A stretch of DNA of 63,953 nucleotides, filler included, from Stramenopiles sp. TOSAG23-6 (GCA_900128565.1; 4 parts of 4 records of this genome joined end to end with filler, not necessarily neighbours in it), one strand, 5' to 3'. Shown: positions 4,086-63,953, counted from the first letter of the whole stretch. The notes: generated by a model not told the origin, from the letters alone. A program made the numbers and translations.

Positions 4086-5373
4086 ATGAAGTGTTTAGTT
4101 ATATTCCTTCAACTGCTTTTTGCTCATGCAAATAGAATTCAGTCACGTATTTATGTAAATGAGCATAAATGGTTACATAATCATCATTATGATATAAACG
4201 GCAAACGCGTTTATCCTGATGAACCAGAGGTTCAAGTTGAAAATGTTACAAGCAAAACTTCAAAAGATTTTTCATCTGTATCTAACAAAGAAGATTCAGA
4301 AAAAAATAATAACTTTTTTATGCGTCTTCGTCTTCCATATGGTGCCCCGCTAACAACTCCAAGTGAATACCCAAATCCAGAAAAAATGTTGTTCAGTGGG
4401 TTTTCTTCTACTGATAATGCTGATCCGATAGCTGAAGTTGTTAGTGGTGTTTATCAACAAAAACCTATGAGTGAGCCAGTTGATATGAATGATTCAAAGA
4501 TTACTGAGGCAACATCAAAACTGTTTTCAAAACACTTTGGAAGTTCACGCAAATTACTTTATCTTGATGTACCCACTAATTTAGATGATTCATTAATGAA
4601 TACGAATAATCAATATCAGGGAAGGGGGCGTTCAATGGGAAGAGGTAAAATGTCTGCAGATCCGACTAGTTATGATCCAGCTTGGTGGAGAAAACCTGAG
4701 GATTCCCTTCCTTCTTCGTCTGGTGGTGGTGGTGACACATTTCTTACACATAAAAGATTTTCAATGCGTCCATATCCTCATCTATCATATGGGTTAGGTG
4801 GATCTCCAGGGAATAGTATGGACATGTTTCCTATGGGAGGTTATAATCCAAACTTTAAATTTTGGGGAGCGCGTATGTTTTTTTCTGTTTGTTTTCTGTT
4901 TGTTTTCTGTTTGTTTTCTGTTTGTATTTTTTTTTTTTTTAGCTACTAGTATACATTTTGTGAGCGCATATGTTTTCTGTTTTTCTGTTTTTTTTTTATT
5001 TTTTCTGTTTGTACATCTTTCAGTGACTTCAAAAGGTTTTTGTAGATGTTTTTTTTAAATTTCAAATATTTTTGTACCTAATGAATTTTAATATTTTTGA
5101 AATATTGTTTACCTTGTACACATGTATTATCCTTTTGGAAAACAAGATACACCAACGACAAGAACATTTAATTTTTCTGATCGAATACGTAAAGTAAATG
5201 CAAAGAATGAAAAAGTAATGAATAGATATTTATCACCAAAGGATGTTTATGGAAATGTACAAGAAAACCTTAAAGAAATATTATGGCAGAATAATGTAGT
5301 TCAATTGGCTGAACCATCAAGCGAAAACTCTGGACAAGATGTCGACTTTCCAATGATACCACCCATAGTGTAA
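4086..5373 (+). CDS. secreted hypothetical protein, 2 exons (4086-4872, 5120-5373)
   Basis: signal peptide MKCLVIFLQLLFAHA; removal of family intron joins the 5122 ORF in frame. Confidence 0.6.
4873..5119 (+). mobile_element. family intron, GT-AC, expanded by TTTTCTG repeats
   Basis: GTATGTTT start, TTTGTACCTAAT branch motif, frame restoration. Confidence 0.55.
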
Positions 5374-5464
5374 AAGAACTAATAAACCTAATAAAACAAC
5401 ACTTTTTGCTTTTCATTTTTAGACTCATACCACTTTATTAGTATGATATATTTATAATTTATAT

Positions 5465-6977
5465 TTATAATTTAACAAGTATTTGTGATTTTTTCATAGA
5501 TATAGGACATTTAGGATGAATAAAAAGAGGCTTACTCGTCATCTTTTTGTTTTCATTCTTATTATTTTCTCTTGCATTGCTATTCACCCAACTGAAATCT
5601 TTTAAATATGAAACACCGTCATTGCTATTATTAAAGTCTTTTGACATGTTAATACATTTTCTAGGACAATTACAATTTGGTAATTTTTGACGTTGATGAA
5701 GAAAGAGAGGATTTTTTTTTGGATTCATTCCTGGGATGTATTGTGAAAAAAAAAATGTAGTTAAAAATAATTGTTAGGTACGAAATTTGAATTTCGTATG
5801 AAAAAAACATTAAATTAGAAATTCATATAAAACGTCATAAAACGTACACCTGATAAACACTTGCTTCTTCATCACTCGTTGGAATTGTTATATTATTTGG
5901 AAGGGAGTGATTAATTGAATTAACTAATTCAGTTATATTCTTTGGTAAAATATACCCAATATCTTTACCAAATCCACTAAATAAACCAACAGCAGAAGAA
6001 GGAGAATAAGTATCTTCTTTACTACCAACAAATATATGACTGAAATACTCTATGAATTTTTTTTTCATATTTATAAAATTTGAATACCAGAAAGTCTTTT
6101 TGTTTTCACTTGGAATTGTATTAAGTACATGACTACTAGAAAACTCATTCAAGTAATTTCGACATTTTCCACTGGTTTGAAGAAAAATATTTTTCATATT
6201 TTGAAGTTTTTGATTTCGTGTATCATCATACTCCTGATCTTCAACACTACAACGTGAATTGCTTAATATATTTCTATCATCAAAAGAGTTCCATTCAATA
6301 CTGCTTTCTTTATCAAGTAAAAATTTGTCAAGACGACGAAGGAAATCTGGACAACTTTCAAGTAATTCTTCATAATAAACTGTATGAAGCCTCCTTTCTA
6401 TACCAACGAGAGGTTGCCAAAAATTAACTTCATGCCAGGAGTCATTTGTGTGTTTCCAAAAGGATAAAAGTAAAGCAATAAAAACTGGATCATTATTTAA
6501 GCATTCTTGTAATGTAGCATTGAGTGGACATGACTTATGTCCTCCATTAGGAAATAATTTGAGATAACACAACAACGACACAATAACATCCTCGACTCGT
6601 CTCTCAGTATATATAATTTTACCCACGCACTTCATATAACAAAGACAGTCACACCCCAACTCATTGTCTGCAGGAACATGATTAGTCTTTACCAAACGCA
6701 GAGGACCTTCATACCGCTTATATATTGTATCCATTAATAAATGAGTACCACTTCTTCTATGACTTGCAATGAAAATAGTCGGTATGTCACTAGTTATTAG
6801 TGACTTCCAATTTGAAGATGCACGAATACAAGGCCATTTTTTATCACAGTATTTAGAAAACCAGGGTACGGTAGAGGGGATACTAAATGATTCTTGAAAT
6901 ATGTGTTTCTGAATTAACAGAGCAAAAACAATTCCAAGAATTGTTATCATTGTAATTGTCTTCATTGATAAAATCAT
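5465..6977 (-). CDS. type II membrane sulfotransferase-like protein, 2 exons
   Basis: N-terminal TM; SHRRSGTHLL PAPS loop, KTNH, R..EDVIVS, YEEL; intron 5736-5847 joins the 5465 ORF. Confidence 0.75.
5736..5847 (-). mobile_element. family intron, GT-AT
   Basis: GTACGTTTT...GTACCTAAC...CACAATACAT; frame restored (YQV|PGMNP). Confidence 0.8.
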
Positions 6978-7238
6978 TTTTTTTTTAAAGGGAATACGAA
7001 TACTTAATTTATTGAATTTGTTCGAAACCAAAATTAATAAATCATGAATGTTTTCGTTGATGTTTTTGACAGTTTCAAACTTTCAGTCCTGATGCCTTTT
7101 CCTTTTTTTAGTTCTAAGATAACCAATTGTTTTAGTTATCCCGCAATTGTTTTTTTGCTAATCTTGATATAATTATCAGTACCTTAGGATGTACGTATAC
7201 GTATATGATGTACAAATTAATTATAAACAAGTAAATAA

Positions 7239-16004: not shown

Positions 16005-16092
16005 GGACATTGGTTTTTTTTTTTTTGGTACAATTTGTTAGGTACGAAATTTCGTACGAATTTGTCTTTGAAAAAACAAATTTTTAATGTAT
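16005..16092 (-). mobile_element. family copy in 3' non-coding region of the MYND gene
   Basis: TTCGTACGAAATTTCGTACCTAAC core on minus strand; ends uncertain. Confidence 0.6.
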
Positions 16093-16757: not shown

Positions 16758-16857
16758 NNNNNNNNNNNNNNNNNNNNNNNNNNNNNNNNNNNNNNNNNNN
16801 NTTAATTAATTAANNNNNNNNNNNNNNNNNNNNNNNNNNNNNNNNNNNNNNNNNNNN
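16758..16857. other. artificial contig linker
   Basis: 100-nt N run containing TTAATTAATTAA. Confidence 0.97.
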
Positions 16858-16916
16858 TGTTAGGTACAAAATTTCGTACAAAAAAAAAATCATACAAAAA
16901 AAAAAAAAAAACATAC
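16858..16916 (-). mobile_element. family intron truncated by contig end
   Basis: AT|GTATGTTT...GTACCTAACA then N linker; near-identical to 17264-17354 copy. Confidence 0.8.
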
Positions 16917-19900
16917 ATCATTTCACGATTTGATTTGACTTCAATAAACAAATTATACCAATGTCTCCATAGTTGTACTAAAAAATGATGTCGTTTCCGA
17001 ACTTTTTTTTCTGCTAATTTTCTCCGCCACTTTTTTATCATTCCTATTGCACGTTTTTTGTTGATTGAAAGTATAAATTGTCTCACACGACCACTTTTAT
17101 TAGACTTTTCATTCCATATATCAAAAACATTTGTCAATAAATTATTGACATAAAAAGCAACTGCAGCTGCATTTTTGCGTGACTGTAAAACACTCTTGAT
17201 TTTTCGTACTCTCCATTGCACGAAATATTTCGATATGGTACGACGAAGTTGTCCCAATAATACATGTATTTTGGAAAAATATTTCAAAAAAAATTTTGTT
17301 AGGTACAAAATTTCGTACGAAAAAAAATCATACAAAAAAAAAAAAAAAACATACATTCCTCGCGATATTCTTGGTGGATTTTCTGTGATTCAGGTAATTT
17401 ATCCACTTTTGAAAGTGTAATTTTCTATTTTGATGAAGCTGTCGCCATTCAAATTGAGATATTCGAATGTATTATGAAGAAATATTTATTTTTTACGAAA
17501 AAAAAAAAATTGTTAGGTACAAAATTTCATACCAAAAAAAAACAAAATTGAAATTAAATTTTAAAAAACGTACATGCCTACACGAAAAAATTTAAATGTT
17601 TTTGACAAACTTTTCAAATCCCACATGTAATAAATGGCTTCATCCCTTTCTCGTTTACATATGAGCATTTTAGCTTGTTTCCTCCATCCATTAAATATTG
17701 AAAGGACAGCGGCACGTACACTTTTTTCATTTACCTTTTCATACAAACCACCGATAATATTTCTTGTATTTACGAGCTTTTTTGCACGTCTGAAAAAACT
17801 GCGTTGTCTTATTTCAACTTGTGCACGTTTACTTATAGAATTCCGTATGTTTTCTGCATCTAATAGAGGAACTAAAAATGAATTCCAAACTTTCTTTAAC
17901 AATTTTATTCGATAATGTTCAATAGCTATATGTTTTCGACTCACGTCCTGTGTATATGTTTTGCTCTTATTAGGTGAAGGGAATTTGTCTTCATTCATTA
18001 AAGGCATCGAGTTATTGTTACTATTCATTGAATTTTTATTTCCTGAATGATCAATTGTCTTCGTTTCGACTTGTTTAGGAATATCAATATCTTTTGATAT
18101 GTATTTAAAAAAAATAGTTCAAATTTTATATTCGTTAGATATGGAATTTCGTATAAAAAAAAATGGAATTCATGATGAAAACGTATCGAATAAAAACTCA
18201 AAAAAAAAAACTTTTTTTTTGTTAGGTACGAAATTTCGTACTAAAAAAAATCATAATGAAAACGTACATAATTGTATCGAGTGGAAATTTACGTGCTCTT
18301 GGTGTTTCAGCTTCACTAGACTCGTTTTCGCCACTGGCAATTATCCAACCTTTTTCACAACCTTGATTGAATTCTTTCAAAATTCTAACCTTTGTTTTCA
18401 CAATACTTGCCGCATTAGCAATATGTTGCTTATACGTACTTGAAGTTTTTTTAACGGAAATTTTATGTAATATTGGAGTTTTTTGAGGACTACTAGTAAA
18501 CGTTTCTTTGTATTTTTGTGTGTCATTTGAAGCATTTTGAAGTGATTTTTTCTTTTTAGTAATGGATTGTTTTTTTATTGTTGGCGTTTGTAATGAATGT
18601 GAAGATTCGAAACTTTCTTTTTTTATTGTTGGCGTTTGTAATGAATGTGAAGATTCGAAACTTTCTTTTTCTCCAATATGAAAACTCTCCTTCAGTGATG
18701 CTGCGCTTGCTAAGGCATCTACTCGAAAACCAGATCTCAATGCTAGGCTTCGAGCTTTTCTTTGCGATTCTCTTTTTGGTGTACACACCGAAATGAACTC
18801 ATTTTCTAAAGATACGCTTAATACTTTTCTGCCCTCACTTATAGCCTTTGTCATTCGATATTGTTTTTCAGGGGTTTGTGTTATTGATAACGTTACATTT
18901 GGGGTAATCTTTTGTTTCTTTTTTGAAGTTGATAATGTGTTCCGTATAGGTGATGTAATCTTTTGTTTCTTTTTTGAAGTTGACAATGTGTTCCGTTTAG
19001 GTGATGTAGCATTTTGTTTCTTTTTTGAAGTTGACAATGTGTTCCGTTTAGGTAATCTAGTATTTTGTGACGTTTTTATTTCTGGCGAAGTTGTGAAAGT
19101 CGGTTTCACTTCGATCATTTCGTTTATAGAATTTACATTTCCTTCGATCATCTCGTTTATAGAATTTACATTTCCTTCGATCATCTCATTTATAGAATTT
19201 ACATTTCCTTCAATAACAGAGACACATACAGGTGATGATACTTTTTTACGTCTCAACATTCGTGAAGATTGCATCCTCTTTCGAATATCACTTTGCTTCT
19301 TTACAACTTGTGGTGATACTTTAGACTTTTGTAATTGATTTGATTTTCTAGAATCTTTGATTTTCTTCTTTTTGATAGATTTGGCAGAGTTTATTTTCTT
19401 TACTAATTTAGAGAATATTTCATCTTTAGAATCATCTAATTTTTCGTGTGTTTTATCATGTATAGACATTTCTAAATTATTTATTTCGTGTGTTTTATCA
19501 TGTATAGGCATTTCTAAATTATTTCTTGGTTTACGTCTTGCATTAAGTTCTGACTTTATCGTTGCTTCTATTTCTAATTTAAGTCCCGATGAAATATCTT
19601 CTGGTAAAATATCTGAATTTTGTTCATGTGTCAATTCTTGTGGTAGATTTCGTATCGAGTGTAAAATATCTGAATTTTGTTCATGTGTCAATTCTTGTGG
19701 TAGATTTCGTGTCGAGTGTAAAAGTGTGTGAGATTTCATTTGATTTGAGATTTCGATACGTCGATTATGAATTTCCGAATAGCTATTTTCTGCTTTTTGT
19801 TTTTTTTTACGTGTACTTTTATCATGTATCTTTGATGACACGTGTCTTTTCCGTCGAATGTGATTACACGATTGATTTTTTTTTTCGCTCCATTTTAAAT

Positions 19901-24436: not shown

Positions 24437-24540
24437 GTACATTTTATTTTTTTTCAATTTTGAATTTATTTTTTCATACGAAATTTCGTACCTAACAAAT
24501 TTAAGGTTTTTTTTTTTTGAAATATTTTTTCAAAATACAT
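24437..24540 (+). mobile_element. family intron, GT-AT, possible chimeric junction
   Basis: joins Zn-finger exon to GPCR TM7-like exon. Confidence 0.8.
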
Positions 24541-33281: not shown

Positions 33282-33372
33282 GTATGTTTTATTTTTTTTC
33301 AATTTCAAATTTATTTTTCATACGAAATTTTGTACCTAACGATTTTTTTTTAAATATTTTTCCAAAATACAT
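33282..33372 (+). mobile_element. family intron, GT-AT, possible chimeric junction
   Basis: consensus-like copy; downstream does not continue the HD family sequence. Confidence 0.8.
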
Positions 33373-33527: not shown

Positions 33528-33627
33528 NNNNNNNNNNNNNNNNNNNNNNNNNNNNNNNNNNNNNNNNNNNNTTAATTAATTAANNNNNNNNNNNNNNNNN
33601 NNNNNNNNNNNNNNNNNNNNNNNNNNN
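33528..33627. other. artificial contig linker
   Basis: 100-nt N run with TTAATTAATTAA. Confidence 0.97.
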
Positions 33628-36272: not shown

Positions 36273-36294
36273 TATAAAAAAGAATAACAGACTG

Positions 36295-36375
36295 AAAAGG
36301 AAGGATTTTTTTGTAAAATTTGTTAGGTACGGAATTTCGTACGAAAAAAAAGAAATTCGAAATAGAAAAGCAAAA
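36295..36375 (-). mobile_element. family copy in 3' non-coding region of FAM227-like gene
   Basis: TTCGTACGAAATTCCGTACCTAAC core on minus strand; ends uncertain. Confidence 0.6.
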
Positions 36376-36438
36376 TCAACCCCCATTAATAAAAATGGTT
36401 ATAACTATTAAATAAACTATCAATACTATATATTTTAT

Positions 36439-38245: not shown

Positions 38246-49072
<10,827 letters not shown>

Positions 49073-49199: not shown

Positions 49200-50024
49200 T
49201 TATGACAATTGATTATAACATAATATTGCCTTTTGACGAAGGTTCATATTATTTGTGACAATTCGTAACTCTCGACACGCATAATTGATCACATCAGATG
49301 TATTACCAACAATTCCAAATTCAAACTTTATCTTTTCAACACATTGACTTAGAGTTGGTTCATTGTTTTCTTCATCTGAAGAAATTACAATAGCATCATC
49401 CCCAATAGCATCAACAGGATCATCTTCCACTTCCGATTGATTAAATTTTTGAACTTTTGCATGAATTGATCCTGCTGTATAATTCCTTGAATTAGGAAAT
49501 TCTTTTGACATCATATCTGCCATTGCCTTATATGTTGGTCTTGGTTTCATTTCACTCAGTTCCTTGAGCTTTGCCAATTCAGCATCACTCCAACAAGTTG
49601 CTTTTTTCCTTTTCCTTTTAACACTAGTTTTATTGTATATATGATATTGAATCGCCCCCTTCAACACATCACATGTATAATTCCTTGAACTAGGAAATTC
49701 GTTTGACATCACATCTGCCATAGCCTGATATGTTGGTCTGGGGTTCATTTTACACAGTTCCTTGAGCTTTGCCAATTCAGCATTGCTCCAACGATTTCGT
49801 AGTTTAATTTTATCAGTTGTTTCATTGTAAACATGCTTTTGAATTGCTTTCCTAATCCCAACATGTGTATAATTCCTTGAATTAGGAAATTCTTTTGTCA
49901 TCATATCTGCCATATCAGGATATGTTGGTCTGGGGTTTATTTCCCACAGTTCCTTGAGCTTTGCTATTTCAGCTTTGCTCAAATTCTTACCCCGCTTCCT
50001 CTTCTTACCCCCACCTCTACCCAT
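49200..50024 (-). CDS. protein with three Myb/SANT-like HTH repeats
   Basis: three WSxAELAKLKEL...PRPTY..MAD.M..EFP.SRNYT repeats. Confidence 0.7.
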   Translation of the reverse strand: MGRGGGKKRKRGKNLSKAEIAKLKELWEINPRPTYPDMADMMTKEFPNSRNYTHVGIRKAIQKHVYNETTDKIKLRNRWSNAELAKLKELCKMNPRPTYQAMADVMSNEFPSSRNYTCDVLKGAIQYHIYNKTSVKRKRKKATCWSDAELAKLKELSEMKPRPTYKAMADMMSKEFPNSRNYTAGSIHAKVQKFNQSEVEDDPVDAIGDDAIVISSDEENNEPTLSQCVEKIKFEFGIVGNTSDVINYACRELRIVTNNMNLRQKAILCYNQLS

Positions 50025-50248
50025 AGTAGTAAGATGAAGTGGGTGAGGTTTAGGCAATATCTTCTAGCTGGTCTGAACGTCTTAAATTGTGTTTCTGTTC
50101 ACGCAGTGAGTAACAATGTCATGCGCACGAGATGACACGGACGTGTCTCTCGAAAATCATCTCAAAAAATCAATGAACAAAAATCTCCGATCTGATCACA
50201 CGAAATCCTCGATTCAAAATCGAAATGGAAATGGGTCGCGGTCACATT

Positions 50249-50348
50249 NNNNNNNNNNNNNNNNNNNNNNNNNNNNNNNNNNNNNNNNNNNNTTAATTAA
50301 TTAANNNNNNNNNNNNNNNNNNNNNNNNNNNNNNNNNNNNNNNNNNNN
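50249..50348. other. artificial contig linker
   Basis: 100-nt N run with TTAATTAATTAA. Confidence 0.97.
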
Positions 50349-50745
50349 AATAAAAATATTACTTGAAGACTAAGATTTTTTGAGATATAGTCAGCGTGCC
50401 GGTATATATATATAGGACCTATATATGGTATCCTACCTCGTAGTGTTGCCGTGTCCTTTTCGAGCGAGGCTTACCCACGTATGACACAATAATGCCATCG
50501 ATTATTATAAGAGTGTGCATCTTACTCTTATTCCTAACATGGCAACGTCAAGTCATTGCTGCAACTATACCAATAGTTACAGCTTCTCCTGAGCCTGAGG
50601 AAGACATTCACGTAGCAACAACTGATGCTTCCACTGAGCCTGAGCCTGACGGAAAAAAAATCGACGTCAACCCTAAGCAAACTATTGCTAGCGAGTTTAA
50701 GGGTGCGCAGCAGATTATATTAAGAGTGATGCAGCGCTGAATTTA

Positions 50746-53700
50746 TTGACGCCTACAGTGTGGGAAGACGAACATGATCTCGATCATGTAATTCGCGGTC
50801 AGATATCAGAACATTCAGGTTTTCCAGAAGAAGTGATAGACGCTTTGAATCTACCTTCAAAAGATTCAGTGCACAACACGATATGGAGGGGGAGTAGCGA
50901 ACATCACGACATGCCTGATCATTATGAAATGCCCGAACATCTATCACCCGCGCAGCGTGACTCGATGCAACGCCCACAGGACGTGAGTGACGACCAGTGG
51001 CACGCTCTGGCAATGCCGGTCGATGCCTCGATCAAGAGGAATGAGCTACTGCTCATCGAGGATGCAAGGCATGGCAAAGTGGAAACAGATATTTCAAAAC
51101 CGATATTTTCTCCTTCTAAAACGTATACTTTTCTATATTTATTTGCACTATTTGGTCAACCGGAAGCATTTGAAAAGCAACTAGATCGTATTATAGGTGG
51201 CGGTATGGATATGATAGAGGAGTATACCAAAGAAATTGCAGAGTTATTTCTGTTAGTAAATAAATCTTCAAGGGTCGACGGATTTCCATTTGTACATGGC
51301 AAAGGGACCGCATACCGAAATAGTATTCGAGAAAAACTTCAAATGATACTTATACGAAGCATTCCACCATTTCTTGCGGCAGCCGTCAAGTTAGGTGATG
51401 TTGCATCTGTTTTAATATTTCAAGAGTTTATAGACAAAAGTTTACGAGGAAAGGTTTTAGTGAATGCTCTGAGTATTCTATATGATTCCCTTTTTTATAA
51501 ACATACTGTGTCTCCTGTGGAAAGGACACATAAGTTAAACTTCATGCAATTTTTGGATGATAGCAAACTAACAGAAGGAAAAGAGTATACGGTATCAGAG
51601 AACGGTAGTACCGCTGTAAATAATGCTTTCTTGGATCAAAATGGATTTTATATCCCTATATTCGACAAAAAACGATCGGACACAGTTTGGGTAAAACAAA
51701 ATTTACCAACCATCAAATCTGATCCTTCTATTGGTACTAACTTTGTGTGGCGATGGACTGAAAAGACACTTGACACTGATGTTTTGACGTATTGGGATAT
51801 GAAGCAAAAACATCAAAAAAATGTCCCCATCATTGAGGTCAGTAATCATATGATGATAGTGTTGATCTTAATGAATCGAGAAACGTTTGACGAAGATTTA
51901 GGTAAGGATATGGAAGAACTTAGATTAATGATAAAAGCACAGAATGAAGCCATACCGACTATGGATATAAACAAATTAGATAGATTTAGAAATCATTTTA
52001 GGGAGTATATCAATTTTGAATATCTTGACGCTGCCATACAAGGTATACCTGAAATTCCTGAATATTCCTATCTATACATGATAGTATATCAATCTATAAT
52101 TTTGCACATAAAACAATTAAGTATGGATGAAATCGAGACTTTGCTTTGTGAAAACGTTTCACCAAAAGTACCACATCATCCAGAACTGCTTACCTTTATA
52201 TTCAAATTATTATCTAAAGAACAGGTTGTGGAGTTATTTGGTAAAAATCAAGAGTTGGAAAAAAATATTATGATGCTTGCTTTGCAGGAGGATGATTACT
52301 TTTTCCTTGAAGAAATTATTGACAAGCATAATGAGGGTTATATTGATGCTGTAGGCCGACGATTATCCTTATCTGATGAAGAAGAATATTCTTTCCCAAT
52401 AGGTCTTCATCCAGAGTCGATAAAGTACATGATTTCAAGGAGAAGCGTTTTTTTCAAAAATCATAGAGGTGATGACTTTTTAACAGTGCTTGAATATGCA
52501 GTTGCAAACTTGGATATGGATCTAGTAGAATTTCTTTTGGAAGAGGGATCAAACCCATATAAGAATCTAAATCGCCGGAAGGTGTTTGAATTCCTTTTAG
52601 GTTTGGGAAATCCTTTTGGGATTGACAATGTACGAGATACACTCGTCTTGGAAATAGCAACATTATTAATAAAACATGGAGCTGCAGATGTTTTTGTGGA
52701 TATTACTCCAGTAGAATTGTATGAAAAATACGAAGGATTACAGAGATTGCTCAACTCAAAAGATCAACTGGTACTGAGCTTTCCAGGATCTCAGGAATGC
52801 AGTATTTCAACATATTGGTTAAAGTTGGTTGTCGAATGCACTAAACAGCCAAGTCATGATATACATCCGTCTAATGTAGACCGCGTTGAGTATATTCGTC
52901 GTATTGGTGCTGATTTGAAGGGCAATGAGCCTATAAGTATACTTCATGAAGCTGTCATGGGAGGTGATTTTGAAGTGATTCGCAATTTACTTGAACATAG
53001 CTGGCAATCATCTATTGTCAATGAAGTCAATGAACACGGCAAAACACCTCTGGATATTGCGACTTCTTTGTATATAGAGCACGAAAACAAATATGGCCGT
53101 TTCGTTTCTTTTTTCACCAAGGAAGAAAAAAGAAGACGAGAGAATATAGAAATGATTCGAGACACAATAATTAAATATAAGGGAATATCATGTTTAAAGA
53201 GACAGAATTATGTTACAAGCGCGAAAGAAATGTTTCTGAAAATGGAAGCTTCACAAGAAACTCTTAAATCGGCTCTAATGGAGTTTCAAAAATTGGAAAA
53301 GAAAGAAAAGAAATCATCGGGTGGAAAGAAGAAGAAAAACAAAAACAAAAAGAAATCAAAGAAGAATGAACCACGTGATATAATGCTGAAAAAAATAAAG
53401 AATCTTGAGGCTGATGGGTTAATATTTAAAGACAAGTATTTAAAATTCTCATCAATGCTAGAGGAATTTGGAATTCCTAAAACAGATATTTTCAAGGAAA
53501 ATACTAAATTGTGTCACACTCAATTGGAGCCTGAACCTGAACATGAAGTACAATTGGGATCACCGCCCCATACTAAGATGTATGCCAATTCGGGAGAAAC
53601 CTGGCAAATTGAGCCTGAACCTGAACATAAAGTACAATTGAAAGAAATCTGGCAATTGGGTAAACCTGGGTCCGGGTCTATTGTTGAATGGATGCAGCTA

Positions 53701-56700
53701 CCGGTGGAACAAATCGGTCGTTTTGAGCAGTGGTATAAACACATAGGAAGTAAGATCGATACAATTGACATTTTACAAAAAGTTGGTTCGGGCAAAGGTA
53801 GCTTTGGTCAACAGGTGTGGAATATGTTCACCAAAGAACCCAAGAAGGTGAAAATATTTCTTGATGGAATATTCAATTCAAGCGGGCTGGTGGACGCGGA
53901 ACACCATGACAACTTATCATCTCCACGAACTTTAGGGAGTATATCAAAGAACGGCGCTCTCCTAGAGACATGGATAGCTTCGTGGGTAAAAATTTTGCAA
54001 TCCATGAGATCTGCTGAGACTAATGACAATGTCCTTTCTTATGCAGCAAGTCATACACAAAGAGAAACTGTAAGAAATTTACTTGAATATCCTTGTTTTC
54101 AAAGACTTATCGACGATGTGAATCATAATGGCTTTACTGCATTACACATTGCTGCTGGCGTCGGCGACATTGGTATGGTAAAATTACTTCTTTCGAATGG
54201 TGCTGATCCAAATATTAAGGCCAAAGTCAATTTCGATACAAGATCATGTGCTCTTACTCCATTAACCATTTCTGCTGTTGATGGTTCAACAGAAATTGCA
54301 CAATTACTTATTTCAAATGGCGCTGATGTAAACATTGTATCGGAAAATGGAGTTTCTGCGTTGACTTGTGCTATTAACTTCAAACATTATGATTTTGTAA
54401 AAATGTTGATGCAATCATCAGAGCTAAACTCGGAAATTGTAAATAAAGAATTTCTCAGTAAAAAGAAAATAAAAACTGTTCCCCTAATGCGTGCGATAGC
54501 TGTCGACCACCCCAAAGATATTGTAGAACTATTAATCAGGAAAGGTGCAAATGTTGATTATACAGATGATGCTTTGGAAACGCCACTTACGTATGCTTGT
54601 AGGAAAGGAAATAATAATTTGTCACGATTACTAATAGAATCTGGAGATAAGGTATATCTAAAAAAAATGAAAACAATTGACGACTTGACCCCATTAATGC
54701 TTGCCTCTCAGTATGGGATGATAGATGTTGTAAAGTTGCTTCTTTTGCATGGTGTAGATGTAAATTTTGAAAGAAAAAGTGATAAACGTAATGCTTTGAT
54801 TTATGCTATCATTGGTAAGCACACTGAGATTGCGCAACTTTTAATTGACAAGGGAGATAAAAAATTTGTGCAAACAGAACAAGGTTTCACCCCGCTTATG
54901 TTTGCTGCACAAAGAGGTCTTTTGGATATTGTAAGCTCATTACTAGATAATGGTGCTGATATTAATGTGATGATTACAGATTCAAGTACTGCATTAAGTT
55001 TTGCGTTAAAATGGAGTGGACAGGGTGGTGTTGCATCAGTTGAAGAATTATCAAGAAAACGAGATGTTGTAAGACTACTTATTGCTCGAGGTACAGTTAT
55101 TAGAATCAAGGATTGGTTTTTGGTAGTTGAGGAATGGTTACCAAGAAAACAAGATATTGCAGAACTAATTTTTGCTCAAGGTACAGTTATTGGAAGCAAT
55201 GAGTTGTTGGAAGTTGAAACGCTTCAAAATGAAATTGTGCACATGCTGCTTGAAGGGGACGCAGATCCCGACTGGACTTTAGCTAATTGCGGGAGTAACT
55301 TTACAGCACTTATTGTTGCTTCTGTAGTAGGATCTGCAGAAATAGTTGCAACATTACTTAAAGCAGGTGCTGATCCCAACAAGCTCGATAGACATCGTAA
55401 TTCCGCTCTTATGCTTGCTGTAAAAAATGGACATCTAGAAATAGTTGAAAACCTCATTGCTAGTGGTGCTAAAATTAGTCATTCTGGTGGTCGATGGGGA
55501 AAATCTAAGGTGGAATTGACTGTCTTAGCTCTTGCTCTACTCGCTAGGTTGACAGACTATGCAATTGTAGAAATATTAATTGCCAATGGTGCTAATGAAG
55601 ATGATCTAGTCTCTGTTGAAGGTTTTGATATGAGCGATGACATTTTATTCATACGAATGCTCAGAATTATCGATAATAGTAGTCCATCATCACCATTTGA
55701 TTGGTTACATCTAGTAGGTGATGCTTCAGATGATAGCAGCTATGAAAATAATGTCGCTGAAAGTAGTGGCGATGATGAAGCAATCAATGAGGAAGAACTA
55801 ATATTAATTAATCTTTACAAAGGTTACCATGGCGCATCTAATGTAGATTTGTTTAAAGACAAGAAAGAAGCCGAAGAAAGAATTAAAAAAGAAAAGAGGA
55901 GAAATGATACTACATCAGTAAGACCAACAAATGATACAGTAGCGGGTGACAGTGATATAGATGTATCACGAGCACTGCCCAAAACAAGTGATATTGAAAG
56001 GACGTTATTTATATACGATAAAGTTGAAAAATGGCGTAGGAATCCAAAAAATGCACATCTTATGAAAAGTTTTGCAAAGCATTTACAATACATTTCAAAT
56101 GGTGAAATACGGAGTGGGTATAAACCATTAGAAACTGTTACTGGTGTAATGGGTAATAAATTATGGGAAGCCCCTATTACTGGAAAGCAAAGAATTTTGT
56201 TTGAATTTCCTGAAAGGCTAGAAAATGGTACAATATCTCCTGGACATGTATGGGACGTAACTCCGCAGCACGATGGTCATGGTGGTATTGCAGATCGTGC
56301 CGAAAAACTAACATCAACAGCGACACGTGCCAATTTGAGAAAGCAAGCATTGATTAGAAAGGATGAGTTATCAAAATATGGAAGTAGGTCACTGGAAGAT
56401 GCTCATGATATTGGTTACGACAAAAAATTGTATGGTAAGGGTCAATCGAAAAAATACGTATTGAAATCGAATCATTCAGGCTCATTGGACTGGGAATCTC
56501 AATTAAGTGAAAAGGATTGGAAAATTCATCAAAGGTTGTCGGACGAAGAGCGAAAATGTGTAGATATTGCAGGATTTTGTGAATTGGACGGTCGAGCCGG
56601 AACGGGGAAGACAGAGATCACAATGTTTAGAATGATACTTAATGCAAATAAAGCTGCTGGAGAGGATCATTTTATCGCATTGAATGAAGGAAGAAGAATG

Positions 56701-58925
56701 TCATCTCATGTTGATACATTTGCTGCAGTGGAACCAGAACCAGAAATACAAGAACCAGTACCAGAGTATCATCAATGTCGTCAAGTATTTATAGCAAAAT
56801 CTCTACATTTGAGTGAAAGTGCTGAAGATCAAATGCCTGATGCATATTTACATGACCCTTTGACATCAATGGAGTTTTTACCAGTAACCATTAATCCTTT
56901 TGAACAAGAATGGCTTAAATCTCGCGACAAAAAAAAGATTTCTTTTGTGGAAAGAATTGAAAGAGAAGCAAACGGTGATATGTCTAAAGCACTACGCCAT
57001 GCTATTGACTTTGAGGAATCTGCGGCTAAACATGGTGGCCATATTGACTATAAAATGTTTAAAGAGCAATATGAAAACTTTACTGTTGGAAAATCAAAAC
57101 ATACGTCTAGTGTACTACAAGGTACCTGTGAATTATCTGCAGAAGTTGTGTGGACGCAAATAAATACAAATATCAAAGGTTCATTTCAGTCGTTTATGGA
57201 GGGCCGAGAATTAACTCTTGACGAATATCTAGCCCAGGGCACACGAAAGGGATTGTTACAGTTTAATGCTAAGCAAAAGAAAGCAATTTATGCCGTATTT
57301 TTGAGGTACGAATCTTTAAAAACAAGTTCTTCATTTGATGGTGTAGATTCTGGGAGGAAAAAAATATGGTATGATGATATGGATCGAATTTTAGATGTTG
57401 TTCGACGTTTGAAAAAATTCGAAAAACATTTTCCTTTTGTCATAGAATTTGGTAAGAATACAATGTGGAAGAGCGGTCGACACCCATTTGATTATATATT
57501 CATAGATGAAGTTCAAGACTTACCTCCAATTATTACTGCTCTTGCTCGTTGTGTTGTCGGAGGTAGTCCAGATAACATTACTGTAGCTGGAGACCTTGCA
57601 CAGCAAATAATACCCGGAGTAGCATTTACTTTTGACAATATTCATAATATTATCGCTCGTTCTGAAGATGGTTCCCGTATTGTAGGTTTTACAGCATCGT
57701 CGAAGGAAGGTGCGAATAGAAAGCTGCAAATAAATTATCGTACACATGCTCAAATGATTGAAAGTTCCTCTACGATCATGTAGGTTTTATTTTTTATCAA
57801 TTTCGAATATATTTTTCGTACGAAATTTTGTACCTAACGATTTTCTTTTGAAATATTTTTCCAAAATACATTCGCCTTTTAGAAAACTATTTTCAACTAC
57901 CAAGGACTCATGCTGATACCAGTGCTATTACAGAGAGATCTGGGCCTACACCTAAAATATGGCGTACAAATAATAAAGAACTGATAGATGAATTAGCGCC
58001 TGGAAATGTTCTACTTTTCAAAGATGAGCAATCAATTCAAAGATTTGAGAGAGAGTTTGAGGAAAGATTAGAAATGATACAGAGAGAAAAGGAAAGGTTA
58101 CAATCAATAAAAGCAGATCCAAAAAGGGTTGGCAAGACGGTCCATCTTGATTCTCAATTAAAAGAATTGCAAATAAGAGAAGAAGCAAGCATAAGGCGAC
58201 AGGAGAAGGCGAAGACGTACACAAAACTTACTGTACGTGAATCGAAGGGTTTAGAGTATGGCAGAGTTGTTCTTGTAAATTTTTTTTCATATGCTGATGA
58301 GAAGTATTGTAAATACTTTCGTGCATTATTTACTGGGACAGTAACTGATAGGCATAAAAAAAGTTTTGAGGATGATCCTGATTTGTATGATGGACTTCGT
58401 AATGAATTGAGATTGTTCTATGTAGGAATGACTCGAAGCATTACAGAATTATATATAGTTGAAACAAGTGAAAATAGTTGTCAGAAATCAGCGTTTGACT
58501 TCTTTTTAAAAGCAAGAAACGAGGACGATGGCGAAGTGCGTAAATTATTCGAAAGGTATGCTCCAACAAAAAAAGGCATACANGGTAGTCTATTTACTGT
58601 ANGTATTAGTAAATCAAGTTTAATCAAACAAGGGTCACAATTGATGATTTTATCAAATCAATCAAAGGAACATAGTCTCAAATATTCAACTGAAGCAAAA
58701 AAGTTATTTGCATTAGCCGGACGATTGGACCTAGTTGATAAAATAGATGCTTTTGCNTCNTGTACTTCCTTGCCAGAAGGTACTAATNATGATGTTTTTA
58801 TTGAGTATATTGATACATGTATGAAATTGGGTTTATTTGGCAAAGTCATTGAAGTAATTAAAGCAAGAAAAAATCCAAAGTTTTTATATATTATACAGAA
58901 GATACAACGTTTGTCTGCACCCTGA
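50746..58925 (+). CDS. TRANK1-like ankyrin-repeat / UvrD-like SF1 helicase, 2 exons; true start uncertain
   Basis: many ankyrin repeats; GRAGTGKT, DEVQD, AGDLAQQI, INYRTH, then after intron ESKGLEY and ELRLFYVGMTRS. Confidence 0.85.
57780..57871 (+). mobile_element. family intron, GT-AT
   Basis: AT|GTAGG...CAAAATACAT|; joins helicase motifs IV to V/VI in frame. Confidence 0.92.
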
Positions 58926-59296
58926 CTGGCCAAATAGTAAGGTGATATATACGACTTTATGCGTGATTACAGCTATTAGGGCACCAATAAATAATTTNAT
59001 TACATATGGAANCCATTAATTGTTTCATTGTAAAAAATAAAATAACAAATAAATAATTTCATTGTAAAAAATAAAATAACAAATAAATAATAACAATGCT
59101 TACAAAAAAATCATAAATTAGGGTTAGGGTCTCGATCCACACGAATAAATCCAAAAGTTTTGTCGCTCGATTTTTCGTTTTGAAACTTTTGATTGGCCGT
59201 TGGTTTGGTGTTGTGTCAAAACCTCATGTTGTAGTATTATACGTGTGTGTATCGTGAGCAGTGTTGAATATTCCTCTCAGGTTGATACATCAAATA

Positions 59297-60046
59297 ATGA
59301 GTGTTCGTAGCATTGATGCTACATTAGAATCCTTACTGAGTCATGTCCCCACTGGGAATACGACAACATTATCCAATGCATCTTACGATTTATTCAAGCA
59401 AGCGGAATCTTTCATTCAATATATTTTTAATGAGTTAAATGAGTCAGGTGGTGCTCAGAAGCTTTTTGACACCATGGAACAAAATGTTTCGAATGAATTT
59501 AANANCCTTTCAGGTATAGAATTANAGCGTTCTACATGTAAAGTTATTTTGATTACATGTATAGCGCTGATTTTATCAATTTTTGTTCGTCTTTTTCGCT
59601 ATTGCTGTAGTTGTTGTAGACAAATGGAAACACCAAAGAAGAAGAGACGATTGAGAAAGAAGAAAAGAGCAACGATGGAGATAGTCAGTGATGAGAGTAG
59701 TGATTATGATGCTGANACTGGTGAATGCATAAAAGGTCCGGGTCTTCGCACTCAAGAAGTAAAACAAAAACGACTTAGACGACGTGGTGGAAAACGTGTA
59801 AAGCAGAGAGAGAGGAAACGTCGCGAAGCTAAAGAAGAAGATCGCAAAGCTACAGAAGAAGCTAAACGTAGAGAAGAAGCCGAAGTGTCATTATTGAATG
59901 CGGAAGGATGGACTACAATAAAAAAGCAGCATCACGCGAAAACACAAATTGAAACAAAAAATGAGTCACGGCCTTTGGAAGATGNTGTTTGTGGAGACGA
60001 CAGTATTGCATGGGACGGAGACTACGATGGTTTAAAAAAAATGTAG
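59297..60046 (+). CDS. hypothetical single-pass membrane protein with basic tail
   Basis: hydrophobic segment followed by Cys cluster and K/R-rich region. Confidence 0.55.
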   Translation: MSVRSIDATLESLLSHVPTGNTTTLSNASYDLFKQAESFIQYIFNELNESGGAQKLFDTMEQNVSNEFXXLSGIELXRSTCKVILITCIALILSIFVRLFRYCCSCCRQMETPKKKRRLRKKKRATMEIVSDESSDYDAXTGECIKGPGLRTQEVKQKRLRRRGGKRVKQRERKRREAKEEDRKATEEAKRREEAEVSLLNAEGWTTIKKQHHAKTQIETKNESRPLEDXVCGDDSIAWDGDYDGLKKM

Positions 60047-60107
60047 TACAATATAGCAAAGATTCAATAAAGATTCAATTATTTATTCATTTCTCTTTAT
60101 GATTCAA

Positions 60108-61601
60108 TTATTTATTCATTTCTCTTGATAATGTTGCAGCAATCAAGAGACTTTTTGCAATCCTTGTAATCGTTCCAGCTTTACCATCACCTGAAATAAT
60201 ATCCAAAGAAGGATCAAATATTTTCTGTTCTAATAAATCATCTAAAGNAATCCGAAGTTGTTTAAATACTACAGCAGTCCTAGGAGGCACTTGNATATGT
60301 ATTACGAAAAAATATTTCNTNAAAAANAATNTTTAGGTATTTTGTTTTTTACGAAATTTGAATATAGTAAAAAAAAAATATCGTCCTAAAAAAAAAAAAC
60401 ATACATTAATCCATCCATCAATAACAATACGCCTTTGACTGTGTAACACATCAACAGCATCGTGTCCAGCTGCAAATAACAATAATGCTTCGGGTGGTAC
60501 CATGGTAAGCTCTCGAAGGTACACTTTTGTAGTTCGAATTTTGTCAAGATAGATAGACCATAAACTATCACTAGCAACACCAATGCATTGTGAAAAAATA
60601 TNTTTTTTTGTAAAATTTGTTAGNTACGAAATTTCGTACGAAAAAAAAATACTTCGAAATTGAANACGTACACTCCTCGATGATCACTANTTTTACATGC
60701 ATGNGCAACAGCTGATGATGGATGAAGATGAACAATCTCACCACTTTGTTCTGTGACGATTCTCCGAGATTTTGTAATGGACGGTTTTTGAACATTGACA
60801 ATACAAGGGTATATATTGNGAAAAAATATTTAAAAAAAAAAGAAATCGTTAGGTACAAAATTTTCTAACNAAAAAAAAAAAATAAAATTCATCATTAAAA
60901 AGTACATAAACCTGCGACAATAACAGCTTTCACAACAACAGCAATATTAGCGTTTTCATTNAATTCAAGTGAAGTGTCCAAATCTCTTGAAAAAGACATT
61001 TTACTCTTTTTTTTTGTATGTTTCAAATTAGTTTTTTGTTTAGATGGTAGGAAACCTATANTGCGTAAATGTCCCATCAAATCTTGTTTTTGATTTCTCA
61101 TACTACACAGTGTATACATTGTGAAACAATATATATTTTTTTTGGTTNAAAAAAAAACGTTAGGTACATAATTTCGTATGAAAAAAAAATACGTAAAGAA
61201 TTCAATTTTGAAAANGTACATGATAATTTAAGAAATTTTTCCGACAAAATTGTTGAGAATACTTATTCCCATGTATATCGACCACATTTCGCCATGTCCA
61301 GTATGCGTTTACTATTATTAACAAATCCGATAGCATTTCATTTTTTTCTTGCCAGAAAGAAGTATTGTGAAAAAATATTTCAACACAAATCTAAAAAAAA
61401 TTGTTAGGTACGAAATTTCGTACGAAAAAAAAACTAAATTAGAAATTCATATAAAACGTACAACTTTTTGCAAATGAAATACGAGCTCGATCGGCCTCTG
61501 CACGTCTGCCCATAGGTACTACAAANGGTGATTTGGCATTCATTGCAACGGCAATAGTGGAAATTGGATCTAGACATCTAAAAATTGTTCCATAAATCAA
61601 C
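60108..61601 (-). CDS. DEAH/RHA RNA helicase C-terminal part (HA2 + OB fold; DHX36/57-like), 6 exons
   Basis: MLIYGTIFRCLDPISTIA, SDLLIIVNAY, AGLYP, IHPSS, YLRELTMVPP, IDGWI after removing family introns; helicase core absent. Confidence 0.88.
60297..60404 (-). mobile_element. family intron, GT-AT
   Basis: restores DGWIN|IQVPPRTAV. Confidence 0.85.
60583..60671 (-). mobile_element. family intron, GT-AT
   Basis: GTACG...CACAATGCAT|; frame restored. Confidence 0.8.
60811..60905 (-). mobile_element. family intron, GT-AT
   Basis: restores conserved AGLY|P. Confidence 0.9.
61114..61219 (-). mobile_element. family intron, GT-AT
   Basis: restores NFLNYH|TLCSM. Confidence 0.88.
61360..61461 (-). 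mobile_element. family intron, GT-TT
   Basis: TT|GTACG...CACAATACTT|; frame restored. Confidence 0.85.
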
Positions 61602-61703
61602 ATATATTTTGGAAAAATATTTAAAAAAAAAAAAACTAAAATTTGTTAGGTACAAAATTTCGTACGAATAAATATTTCGAATTTGAAAAAAAATAAAACA
61701 TAC
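61602..61703 (-). mobile_element. family intron at pyruvate kinase / DEAH helicase junction
   Basis: 5' flank is PK (NETDG), 3' flank is DEAH (MLIYG). Confidence 0.85.
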
Positions 61704-62735
61704 CATCAGTTTCATTTAGAATATCTTGAAAATTAGATAGCCCTTCTTGATTTTCAATTTTTGCAATAATCTTGATTCGAGATGATTGATCGCCAAGTAG
61801 TTTTCGAATCTCCAAAATATCACTTCCTTTGCGAATGAAAGATGCAGCAATCATATCTATTCTGTTNTTGCATCCCCAGTTGATAATATCGTGTTTATAT
61901 CATTTTCAAAAATATTTCAAACATTCAAAATTTGTTAGGTCAAAANTTTTTTTTTTTTTTTTNTTTTTTNTTTTTTTGTTTTTTGTTTTTTTGTTTTTTG
62001 TTTGTGTACAACAAGAAATTGAATCTAGGGTTAGGATTTGAAAACGTACATCTTTTTCTGTTAAGGTAGGAAGATCTACAATCACTCCGGGTAAATTCAT
62101 ATTCTTTCTTTCACCTATGGTTGCATCATTCATGACAGTAACCCTGATACAAGTATTATAAAAAATATTTCAATTTGTTTTTCTGTTAGGTACAAAATTT
62201 CGTATGAAAAAAAAACAAATTTGAAATTCAAAGTAGACAACGTACAACCATTTTCTGGATGACAACTATCGACTGTCAGTACAAGAGCACCATCTGCAAC
62301 TAAGATTTTCTGTCCCACTGCTACTGACGTTGGAAGACTCTTATATGATACAGCTAAACGAGAACTGTTACCCTTGAATGAATAATCCGTGGTCAACTCT
62401 AACTTTTGAAGAGCTTTAAATGTCACTTTGCCAGANTCACTTTCTAGAAATCCCGTTCGGATTTCAGGACCCTTTGTATCCAACATGATTGCAACATTTG
62501 CATTAGGTCGTTGTTTTATCGCTAGCTNTAAACGCTGAAGGCACCCGAGGTGTCCTGCATGATCTCCGTGGGAAAAGTTAAAACGAGCAACNGTCATGCC
62601 TTTATCAATGAGTTTCAATAGCATTTCGACTGACCAACAAGATGGTCCAAGTGTGCAGACGATGCGCGTCTTCCTTTTCGTGATATCCGTTTCATGTGAT
62701 ATAGTATCCATATTAATTTTAACATTGTCCCCCAT
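61704..62735 (-). CDS. PYK: pyruvate kinase, N-terminal ~half
   Basis: [53 protein letters not shown]; ends at NETDG. Confidence 0.96.
61897..62049 (-). mobile_element. family intron, GT-AT
   Basis: restores LTEKD|KHDI. Confidence 0.88.
62151..62245 (-). mobile_element. family intron, GT-TT
   Basis: TT|GTACG...ATAATACTT|; restores [11 protein letters not shown]. Confidence 0.88.
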
Positions 62736-63135
62736 ATTTCTTTTCTTTTCCAGCACACTGTAAGACAATAAAGTGATCTACTTACTACACAAGCAAAATT
62801 TGGCTACACACACACAGTTTTACGACAGAACAGACAGAGAGCACCAGTCAGTCAAACACGCGCTCATCAACNAAAANTTNGANTCNAAAAAAAAANAAAA
62901 AATAGCNAAAAAATACTGAAAAGATAACTTCCGAAGTTCGGGACTAATATTATTTCATACGAATTTTTCCTACCTAAATAGTCCAATCTCAAAACGGATC
63001 TTTTCTCCAAATGGATTTTTATTTTTTACAATAAGTACAGTTACAACACACTACAAACAAAAGAAGAAAGATATATTTAGGACTGTCGACACAAACATCA
63101 AACGCATCATCAAAACNCATCAAAAGTTCAAAACC

Positions 63136-63900
63136 ATGTCAAAAAACGCAAAAAACGAGACAGAAAAGACAAAAAACTCATCGAGCTCCTCTGAATTNAC
63201 AATTGAGCATAGTATTGGAGTGTTAGATGTCGAAGATATTTTGACGGAGACTGAAGCAAGGGAATTTTCCAGTATACATTTGGATGATAATTTACTTGCT
63301 GCAGGACGTGAAGATAATGGAACTTATTTCACAGATACATTCTTTGCTTTAGCTGCAATACAAGAAACTAAGGAGAATGTACTATTTGCATCAAATTGTC
63401 AGTTGAGTCTTTGTCTGGAAAGACAGCGAGAACTACTCACTCGCAAAGGTGCTCGTTTACTAATGACTAGAAAAGCAATATATGTGAATGATATTGTTTT
63501 GGAGTTTCCAGAACAATCAGAAAAATCCGGAAAATCTTCAAAATCTTCAAAAAATTCATCAAATGAAGATGATCATGTATCATTTTTTTGTCATCAACTT
63601 ACACTGGAAAACTATTTATATCCGTCTGAGGGTGGTACGTTTTCATCATGAAATACTTTTAATTGTTTTTTTTCGTACGAAATTTCGTACCTAACAAAAC
63701 AACAATTTTTTCGAAATATTTTATCATAGTATATGAGCTGTTTTTGATATTCATTTACTAGAGTGTGGGAAAGAGGAAAAATTAGAATTCTGGAAAACAC
63801 TCGCCAGTTTTGTACCTGTGAAAACAAACAAAGAATACAAAGCATTAAAAATGGCAAAAACGATCCACAAGAAAGCTGAGACTGTTGTTGGAGAGGTGAT
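63136..63900 (+). CDS. hypothetical protein, multi-exon, runs off window
   Basis: exon 1 63136-63634 joins open exon 63735-63900. Confidence 0.6.
63635..63734 (+). mobile_element. family intron, GT-AT
   Basis: GTACG...CATAGTATAT|; nearby AG would give a premature stop. Confidence 0.8.
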
Positions 63901-63953
63901 GTATGTTTTCAGGATCAATTTTAAATTCATTTTTTTTTCGTACGAAATTTTGT
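63901..63953 (+). mobile_element. family intron truncated by window end
   Basis: AT|GTATGTTTT...TTCGTACGAAATTTTGT. Confidence 0.8.

Follow-up and report, generated by a model that had tools for sequence, protein, structure and literature searches.

How can genes be expressed when they are interrupted, again and again, by intron-like segments that mostly lack the AG at which introns are expected to end? The question is raised by the window analysed here, a stretch of 63,953 bases made up of four contigs with artificial N/TTAATTAATTAA spacers at 16758-16857, 33528-33627 and 50249-50348. Its eukaryotic, compact genes carry about 40 sense copies of one repeat family of 86 to 169 nt (median 102 nt, GC 20%), most of which end in AT. 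Few signals of eukaryotic gene expression are as conserved as the terminal AG, which is read by U2AF35 and then by the catalytic centre, through a contact between G(+1) and G(-1). The best explanation, towards which we lean with moderate confidence, is that the segments are copies of an introner-type element, similar to miniature inverted-repeat transposable elements (MITEs), and that they are spliced out by a spliceosome that accepts CAU.

Boundary statistics were obtained from 34 cleanly bounded copies. The first two bases are GT in 33 of them and GC in one, with GTACGT as the donor in 13, GTATGT in 10 and other hexamers in 11. The last two bases are AT in 28 copies, AG in three (42121-42267, 44895-45007 and 46117-46281), TT in two and AA in one. 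Since the base at -3 is C in 27 of the 34, the site reads CAT where the canonical members read CAG. A branch motif of the CTAAC type lies about 32-48 nt from the 3' end in 31 copies and 22 or 80 nt from it in two. The copies at 27580 and 47194 carry a CAAAC variant. It is followed by a U-rich stretch and then by the block (T/C)CA(C/A)AATAC. Compared with U2-type introns, the copies thus have a GT or GC donor with an extended consensus and a TACTAAC-like branch motif, and they lack the terminal YAG, AG being found in 3/34. A preliminary description of this DNA had claimed interruptions dominated by GT-AT, in sense orientation, with a GTAYGT donor and a CTAAC branch motif, and three GT-AG members at 42121, 44895 and 46117. 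Our tally agrees with it, the same three copies end in AG, and orientation and signals were seen in the tested copies and in motif counts. Its figure of 38 interruptions comes close to ours (36 tested in-gene copies and a degenerate one at 23790-23893, with a nested double copy counted once). Its start for TOR intron 4, 42121, also stands, as the alternative donor at 42117 breaks the frame. The copies are given below; a pair such as AT/AT denotes the two bases before the donor and the last two intron bases, and a caret marks a junction.

5736-5847, minus strand: family intron, GTACGT...CAATAC+AT, GT before the donor GT; joins 411 and 90 open codons
16032-16083, minus strand: partial copy, core only, from the profile search
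16855-16914, minus strand: copy cut off by the start of contig 2, from the profile search
17264-17354, minus strand: family intron, GTATGT...AAATAC+AT, AT/AT repeat
17467-17573, minus strand: family intron, GTACGT...TAATAC+AT, AT/AT
18099-18267, minus strand: double (nested or tandem) copy forming one 169-nt intron; ends AT, keeps the frame
20179-20268, minus strand: family intron, ends AT, AT/AT; 90 nt, in frame, no stop
23550-23643, plus strand: family intron with a GC donor, GCACGT; ends AT
about 23790-23893, plus strand: degenerate copy, 5' GATATT instead of GTATGT; profile E=0.073
24043-24140, plus strand: family intron, GTAAAT...CAATAC+AT, AT/AT
24437-24540, plus strand: family intron, GTACAT...AAATAC+AT, AT/AT
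24697-24796, plus strand: family intron, GTATGT...TAATCC+AT, GT before the donor GT
26014-26113, plus strand: family intron, ends AT, AT/AT
27580-27684, plus strand: family intron in the ODR4-like gene, GTACGT...CAATGT+AT
29539-29628, minus strand: family intron in the WD40/EF-hand gene, ends AT, AT/AT; in frame, no stop
33040-33143, plus strand: variant copy in the HD-motif gene, 5' ATACGT, 3' ...ATAC+GT, GT before it
33282-33372, plus strand: family intron, ends AT, AT/AT
36305-36369, minus strand: partial copy downstream of the FWWh-domain gene, possibly in its 3' untranslated region
36781-36875, minus strand: family intron in the FWWh-domain gene, GTACGA...AGATAC+AT; in-frame AG 6 nt before the end
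38246-49070, plus strand: TOR gene, with 11 family introns
38936-39037, plus strand: TOR intron 1, ends AT, GA before the donor GT
39113-39198, plus strand: TOR intron 2, GTACAT...AT, AT/AT
39878-39980, plus strand: TOR intron 3, ends AT, CT before the donor GT
42121-42267, plus strand: TOR intron 4, GTACGT...CAATAC+AG, canonical ends
44895-45007, plus strand: TOR intron 5, GT-AG, AG/AG repeat
45590-45751, plus strand: TOR intron 6, GTATTT...CAATAA+AA
46117-46281, plus strand: TOR intron 7, GT-AG
46748-46840, plus strand: TOR intron 8, ends AT; splits LNQA^WTVYY; a CATG repeat permits five registers
47194-47295, plus strand: TOR intron 9, ends AT, AT/AT
47509-47662, plus strand: TOR intron 10, ends AT; junction NY^DKLSL
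48770-48922, plus strand: TOR intron 11, ends AT
57780-57871, plus strand: family intron in the ankyrin-UvrD helicase gene, GTAGGT...AT, AT/AT
60297-60404, minus strand: DEAH helicase intron, ends AT; flanking exons correspond to DHX29 residues 1318^1319
60583-60671, minus strand: DEAH helicase intron, ...CAATGC+AT, GT before the donor GT
60811-60905, minus strand: DEAH helicase intron, GTACTT...CAATAT+AT; junction AGLY^P
61114-61219, minus strand: DEAH helicase intron, ...CAATGT+AT
61360-61461, minus strand: DEAH helicase intron, ends TT, TT before the donor GT
61602-61703, minus strand: copy at a chimeric contig switch, pyruvate kinase to DEAH helicase; phases mismatch
61897-62049, minus strand: pyruvate kinase intron, ends AT; junction LTEKD^KHD
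62151-62245, minus strand: pyruvate kinase intron, ends TT, TT before the donor GT
63635-63734, plus strand: family intron, ...TAGTAT+AT
63900-63953, plus strand: copy cut off by the window end, from the profile search

In the double copy at 18099-18267, two copies are fused head to tail, the first without its 3' end and the second without its first G. At 24043, an internal GTACGT at 24084 was considered as the donor and rejected, as it belongs to the palindromic core; the donor is the GTAAAT. The gene at 33040 is named from HD motifs seen by eye, and a family search gave no match for it. Its variant copy reads GT-AC or AT-GT according to the register, and both registers restore ...IIQRVSFHDE....

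To judge from their sequences, all copies belong to one introner-like (MITE-like) repeat family and are not merely similar introns. An nhmmer profile was built from 30 hand-bounded copies and searched against the window, yielding 58 rows up to E=10; 41 of them reached E<=0.01, including an antisense echo of the palindromic TTTCGTACGAAA core. The MAFFT alignment of 30 copies has conserved blocks over its full length, and 26 short copies compared pairwise are 70% identical at the median and 93% at most. With at most one mismatch, TTTTYCAMAATACAT occurs 16 times against 0.36 expected from shuffles; the branch motif TTTYGTACCTAAC occurs 32 times against 0.18. By eye, the 11 segments in TOR have in common the blocks GTAYGTTTTCATCAT at the 5' end, CATAGAAAATTTCATACCTAAC in the middle and ATATTTTTTCACAATAC followed by two more bases at the 3' end, and a second, very uniform subfamily outside TOR reads roughly GTATGTTTTATTTTTTTTCAATTTCGAATTTATTTTTCGTACGAAATTTTGTACCTAACGATTTTTTTTTGAAATATTTTTCCAAAATAC followed by AT. 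The copies are distributed over unrelated genes, including those for TOR, pyruvate kinase, the DEAH helicase, the WD40, ankyrin-UvrD, ODR4-like and FWWh proteins, and others.

We also compared two metatranscriptome runs (X7, X9) and two metagenome runs (X3, X4) with contig 3, which carries TOR. In all four, the summed contig depth over the repeat cores at 36403-36957 and 38623-39177 was thousands-fold above that of the single-digit flanks; for the metagenomes, the difference amounts to four orders of magnitude. It reached about 160,000 at position 36803 in one metagenome, a value that is not a copy number. This excess is consistent with a great number of copies, such as introner invasions produce. 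Two contig ends fall within copies (16855-16914 and 63900-63953), as expected if the assembler breaks at a highly repeated intron. The partial copies at 16032-16083 and 36305-36369, both on the minus strand, retain the core and branch motif without the ends and are apparently noncoding, so that the family would not be strictly confined to introns. Telomere-like CCCTAA/TTAGGG motifs are found inside the longer introns 42121-42267 and 61897-62049. A scan of prokaryote genomes with a 19-nt core gave one exact match, in a contig of a Bacteroidales metagenome-assembled genome (L002, 6187-6205), which is about the number expected by chance for 596 billion bases.

The boundaries at the level of the mRNA were established by a frame test, in which 36 in-gene copies were cut before GT and two bases after ...ATAC. 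For 34 of them, the open frames on both sides were joined in a single phase (for instance 2359/351, 938/360 and 405/652 open codons). The exceptions are the variant copy at 33040-33143 and the contig chimera at 61602-61703. All 36 copies are sense-oriented, and retention would shift the frame or bring in a stop in 30/34 copies. Removal of the 11 TOR copies yields one frame of 3148 aa ending at a stop codon; similarly, the six DEAH exons form a single frame closed by a stop. Inside 61602-61703 the gene changes: on contig 4, pyruvate kinase exon sequence (...NETD+g) gives way to that of a DEAH helicase exon (LIYGTIFRCLDP...), and the contig was probably misjoined at the repeat during assembly, giving a chimera.

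Homology places several junctions at the same positions. At TOR 46748-46840 (LNQA^WTVYY), 16 homologues align without gaps through the junction, and at TOR 47509-47662 (NY^DKLSL), 15 homologues are gapless from the junction onward. In pyruvate kinase, the junction LPTLTEKD^KHDIINWG of 61897-62049 lies in a conserved motif that is gapless against the closest homologues, and that of the TT-type copy 62151-62245 (ENG^CIRV) keeps their length, again without gaps. Around 60297-60404, one DEAH exon ends at DHX29 residue 1318 and the next begins at 1319. The restoration of conserved motifs claimed earlier is borne out by gapless junctions in TOR, pyruvate kinase and the DEAH helicase. Searches of the PDB with DEAH exons 3 and 4 gave no matches, and the single match of a profile-free search with one DEAH exon, the repeat protein P0241, was rejected as spurious. 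The protein collection held no near-identical TOR (best 43%) or pyruvate kinase (best 64%), and hence no transcript-derived junction.

Independent DNA shows the same ends. A metagenome scan for the 22-nt core detected one locus, L001, on a 3.2-kb contig from another metagenome. Its copy has the ends ...AACAT^GTATGT...CACAATACAT^GG, and removal lengthens the frame from 170 to 214 aa. A telomere-like motif also lies downstream of the gene in L001, at about 900-960 of the minus strand. Contigs from seawater metagenomes, about 99% identical, cover TOR introns 1, 7, 9 and 10. None of the 40 base differences listed, of 99, falls on an intron terminal dinucleotide, indicating that the AT ends are not sequencing errors of one assembly.

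The two bases before the donor GT are identical to the last two intron bases in 23 of the 34 copies, compared with a shuffle mean of 18.3 (P=0.0013). The match looks like the trace of a 2-nt target-site duplication, in which case the element itself would be GTAYGT...ATAC. In the mechanism that we propose, a short AT-rich mobile element of the introner type would have spread through the genes of a marine stramenopile-like flagellate. GTAYGT as 5' splice site, TACCTAAC as branch motif and a U-rich tail with ...AATAC at its end would come with each copy, and the final two bases of the intron (AT in most cases) would derive from the 2-nt duplication, as its second copy. For that reason, chemical cuts before GT and two bases after ...ATAC would restore the original coding sequence, whatever the duplicated pair. 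The spliceosome, most likely U2-type, would accept CAU, and occasionally CUU or AAA, for CAG at the 3' splice site, which would probably be set by the distance from the branch together with the preceding U-rich/AAUAC context. Second-step proofreading tolerant of U at -1 would make every target of the element spliceable. We infer removal at the RNA level because all 36 tested copies are in sense orientation, because GTAYGT and CTAAC signals are present, and because frames and motifs are restored precisely once the copies are taken out. Relaxed recognition of AG is plausible, the use of CAU by yeast prp18 mutants being a precedent. The preliminary description had also proposed a U2-type spliceosome with relaxed AG recognition. 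By DNA sequence and homology, the interruptions are intron-like, and most end in AT in the register that the three AG members set; the spliceosome so proposed would fit them. A further option of that description, an acceptor selected by structure, gains no support, RNAalifold having predicted no conserved pairs on 22 copies.

Several alternatives were weighed against splicing at CAU. The introns might be ordinary GT-AG introns spliced at cryptic sites, canonical AG or others, close to the modelled ends, with slightly different mRNAs. At least one in-frame AG lies between -30 and +45 in 16/34 copies (for example at -6 for 36781, at +3 for 63635, and at +9 for 26014, 29539 and 33282). There is none at any in-frame offset in this range in the other 18, nor at the homology-pinned junctions TOR 46748, TOR 47509, pyruvate kinase 61897 and DEAH 60297, where the alignments are gapless at the modelled cut. 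The 45 nt that follow the intron at TOR 46748 are free of AG in every frame, and in 7/34 copies an AG between the branch motif and the end is left unused. AG sites nearby cannot replace the modelled ends, and we regard this alternative as very unlikely. We give even less credence to the elements not being removed from RNA at all, either because they are excised from DNA like the internal eliminated sequences of ciliates or because the genes are dead or the assembly is at fault. Ciliate eliminated sequences are short and AT-rich and have a flanking repeat of which one copy is left, a reminiscent layout; furthermore, contigs from the RNA runs contain elements, and contig 4 is chimeric at one copy. 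However, all 36 tested copies are in sense orientation with splice-site and branch motifs, which are needless for DNA excision, and no DNA contig precisely lacking a copy is among the 15 joints listed of 110. The genes are otherwise intact and conserved, and the copies recur in independent metagenomes.

Two other readings keep the removal of the copies by splicing. In one, the same mobile-element introns would be cut two bases further 5', as NN+GTAYGT...AATAC and thus mostly AT-AC, with the 5' site coming from the duplicated pair and the AC carried by the element. This predicts an identical mRNA for the 23 copies with matching flanks, and 24/34 copies end in AC. Two TOR copies of the AT/AG type would also read AT-AC, the implied change from H to Q at 46117 not being contradicted by 16 homologues, and AT-AC is a terminal pair accepted by known spliceosomes (U12-type and, rarely, U2-type). 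Nevertheless, the GT register is favoured, because 31/34 copies then become GY-A(T/G), compared with only 19/34 AT-AC in the shifted register, because the three AG copies are then plainly canonical GT-AG, and because the conserved YGT then stands at +4 to +6, as it does in yeast-type 5' splice sites. A weaker reason is that H is commoner than Q at TOR 46117. In addition, GTAYGT at +3 to +8 fits no 5' splice-site consensus known to us. We therefore consider the AT-AC register rather improbable. The main mechanistic rival is the other reading, removal by a minor-type (U12-like) or otherwise derived spliceosome that tolerates non-AG ends and sets the 3' site by branch distance; we judge it unlikely, and somewhat more so than the AT-AC register. 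The CCTAAC of the copies is intermediate between TACTAAC and TCCTTAAC. The branch site of U12 introns is typically about 10-15 nt from the 3' end, whereas the motif TACCTAAC lies about 32-48 nt from it here and is not of the TCCTTAAC type. The U12-type 5' sequence (A/G)TATCCTT, whose absence had been claimed earlier, was not found either, none of the 34 donors having ATCC or ATCT at +3 to +6, and an Rfam scan of the window gave no matches at gathering thresholds. The start GTATGTTTT is one position off the GTATCTTTT variant of Physarum, and GT-AT is known there as a rare U12-type boundary (preprint, bioRxiv 10.1101/2020.10.12.336362).

Some observations weigh against CAU-accepting splicing of introner copies. 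The 2-nt match is missing in 11/34 copies, and its signal rests on few non-AT cases, being driven by TT/TT twice and AG/AG once, plus GT/GT at the variant 33040. Owing to the direct repeat, the labels GT-AT and AT-AC give the same mRNA for the 22 AT/AT copies, so that the register is not fixed for them (GT...AT, ATGT...AC and TG...CA are equivalent). Of 16 homologues, 6 have H at TOR 46117 and one has Q, which is a weak basis for choosing. Terminal inverted repeats amount to GTAT...ATAC only, at best 4 nt by eye, and are imperfect in the GTACGT copies. Two junctions are not pinned by homology, that of TOR 47194 next to a 4-residue lineage-specific insertion and that of DEAH 61360 next to one of about 9 residues. 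Lastly, the two metatranscriptome runs gave only short contigs over TOR, at depths of 2-6. At least three of these contain intron sequence (46076-46244, 47534-47750 and 42225-42376), one of them covering the 3' part of the canonical GT-AG intron 4, and the 15 joints listed, of 110, include none in RNA that spans an intron. Repeat cores exceed exons in depth by a similar ratio in RNA and DNA runs. Such a picture resembles carried-over DNA or unprocessed RNA rather than non-splicing, and it is not specific to the AT introns.

For the host as a whole, we regard it as evenly balanced whether about four in five spliceosomal introns end in AU, owing to one introner, in perhaps at least ten thousand copies, whose 3' site is its own 2-nt duplication, and are removed by an otherwise canonical (GUAYGU/CUAAC) spliceosome that no longer requires G(-1) for exon ligation. 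Confirmation by RNA data would mean that the splicing machinery of this organism can do without the AG signal. Among the known large-scale abandoners of GT-AG (Fritillaria, Amoebophrya and euglenids), the 5' end is scrambled too, and the mechanism is correspondingly difficult to analyse. In the present case, a yeast-like set of signals would differ at its last base only, and the system would thus be a clean natural experiment on the choice and proofreading of 3' splice sites by Prp18, Slu7, Prp22, Prp8 and U2AF. It would also be a natural counterpart of CAU use in prp18-deficient yeast, and it would imply that a mobile element can free itself from requiring AG at its target. Gene finders insisting on GY-AG would mis-annotate most genes of the host, and introner surveys based on such annotations would miss the family.

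From its sequence affinities, we call the host an uncultured marine stramenopile-like flagellate. The contigs are AT-rich (GC about 28-40%). The genes identified encode CCDC39, a ciliary protein, a WD40/EF-hand protein, a WW/EF-hand/ankyrin protein, an ODR4-like protein, a thioesterase, an FWWh-domain protein, an ankyrin-UvrD helicase, pyruvate kinase, TOR and the tail of a DEAH/RHA helicase. The best named relatives of the pyruvate kinase are from the stramenopiles Phaeothamnion, Phytophthora and Sphacelaria, at 56-67% identity, and the TOR matches at about 43% identity include oomycetes and a brown alga. DNA near-identical to the window was found in small DNA runs of 2015 and in seawater metagenomes. 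The ankyrin-UvrD gene (50701-58925) is very long, with frames of 2360 and 357 aa that comprise many ankyrin repeats and a UvrD-type helicase, and its single family intron splits it between the N- and C-terminal domains of the helicase. An open frame of 287 aa at 49200-50063 on the minus strand contains, by eye, three tandem repeats of about 190 nt each. About fifty single N are scattered over 58583-63198, in contig 4 only, and may reflect ambiguity or polymorphism in a merged assembly.

A search of full-text literature, supplementary tables such as the family lists of PMC9860276 excluded, found no lineage dominated by GT-AT or GU-AU introns and no non-AG introners. Excerpts of a study on single-cell genomics of uncultured stramenopiles mention nothing unusual about introns (PMC5778133). 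Introners that carry their 5' site and take their 3' site from the target-site duplication have been described, according to the available portions of two papers (PMC11282704, PMC9860276), and they resemble the present family in their many near-identical short sense copies in unrelated genes. In both, the element supplies GT or GC, the last intron bases are a short direct repeat of the upstream exon end, and removal leaves no indel. In those excerpts, however, the co-opted end is AG and the repeat has 3-4 nt, whereas here it has 2 nt and reads AT in 28/34 copies. As the surveys are presented there, they began from annotated GY-AG introns, and the family of this window would have escaped them. 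The same portions report large non-canonical, transposon-derived intron invasions in Fritillaria, Amoebophrya, Polarella and euglenids (PMC11282704, PMC9860276). Fritillaria borealis, with AG-AC and AG-AT introns, and the MITE-derived introns of Amoebophrya share with our case a non-GT-AG majority and the suspicion of an adapted spliceosome, and Amoebophrya reportedly lacks U1 (PMC11282704, PMC7789003 and PMC13326754, in excerpt). There, as far as those excerpts go, the 5' end is non-canonical as well and boundaries are very diverse; here GTAYGT and the branch motif follow the textbook, the sole deviation being the last base (CAG to CAT). The nonconventional introns of euglenids also have non-canonical ends, short direct repeats at their junctions and a suspected MITE origin, as described in part of PMC11282704. 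In contrast to the present copies, with their canonical signals and no conserved pairs predicted by RNAalifold, they have a stem that pairs their ends and no GT or branch signals.

In Physarum polycephalum, U12-type GT-AT introns have a branch motif 9-12 nt upstream (bioRxiv 10.1101/2020.10.12.336362). They are alike in that GT-AT exists in nature and is tolerated when branch distance sets the 3' site; yet there they make up a fraction of a percent, while here GT-AT ends are the majority, without an ATCC-type motif and with about 32-48 nt from branch to end. By analogy, Saccharomyces cerevisiae lacking Prp18 appears to be the closest mechanistic precedent. In the passages available from PMC10711555, this yeast splices at 3' sites other than YAG, with CAU and UAU the most efficient of those without G; a poly(U) tract upstream and the possibility of pairing with the intron's first base promote such use. 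It shares with the window the CAU, the poly(U) before it, the GUAUGU 5' site and the UACUAAC-like branch, and it shows that a U2-type spliceosome can ligate at a U in position -1. In those passages this is a low-level error of a sick mutant, whereas in the present organism, a wild one, CAU would be the usual and predominant site. What is new in this sample is an introner logic in which AT instead of AG is co-opted, with canonical 5' site and branch motif and non-AG ends in the large majority of copies.

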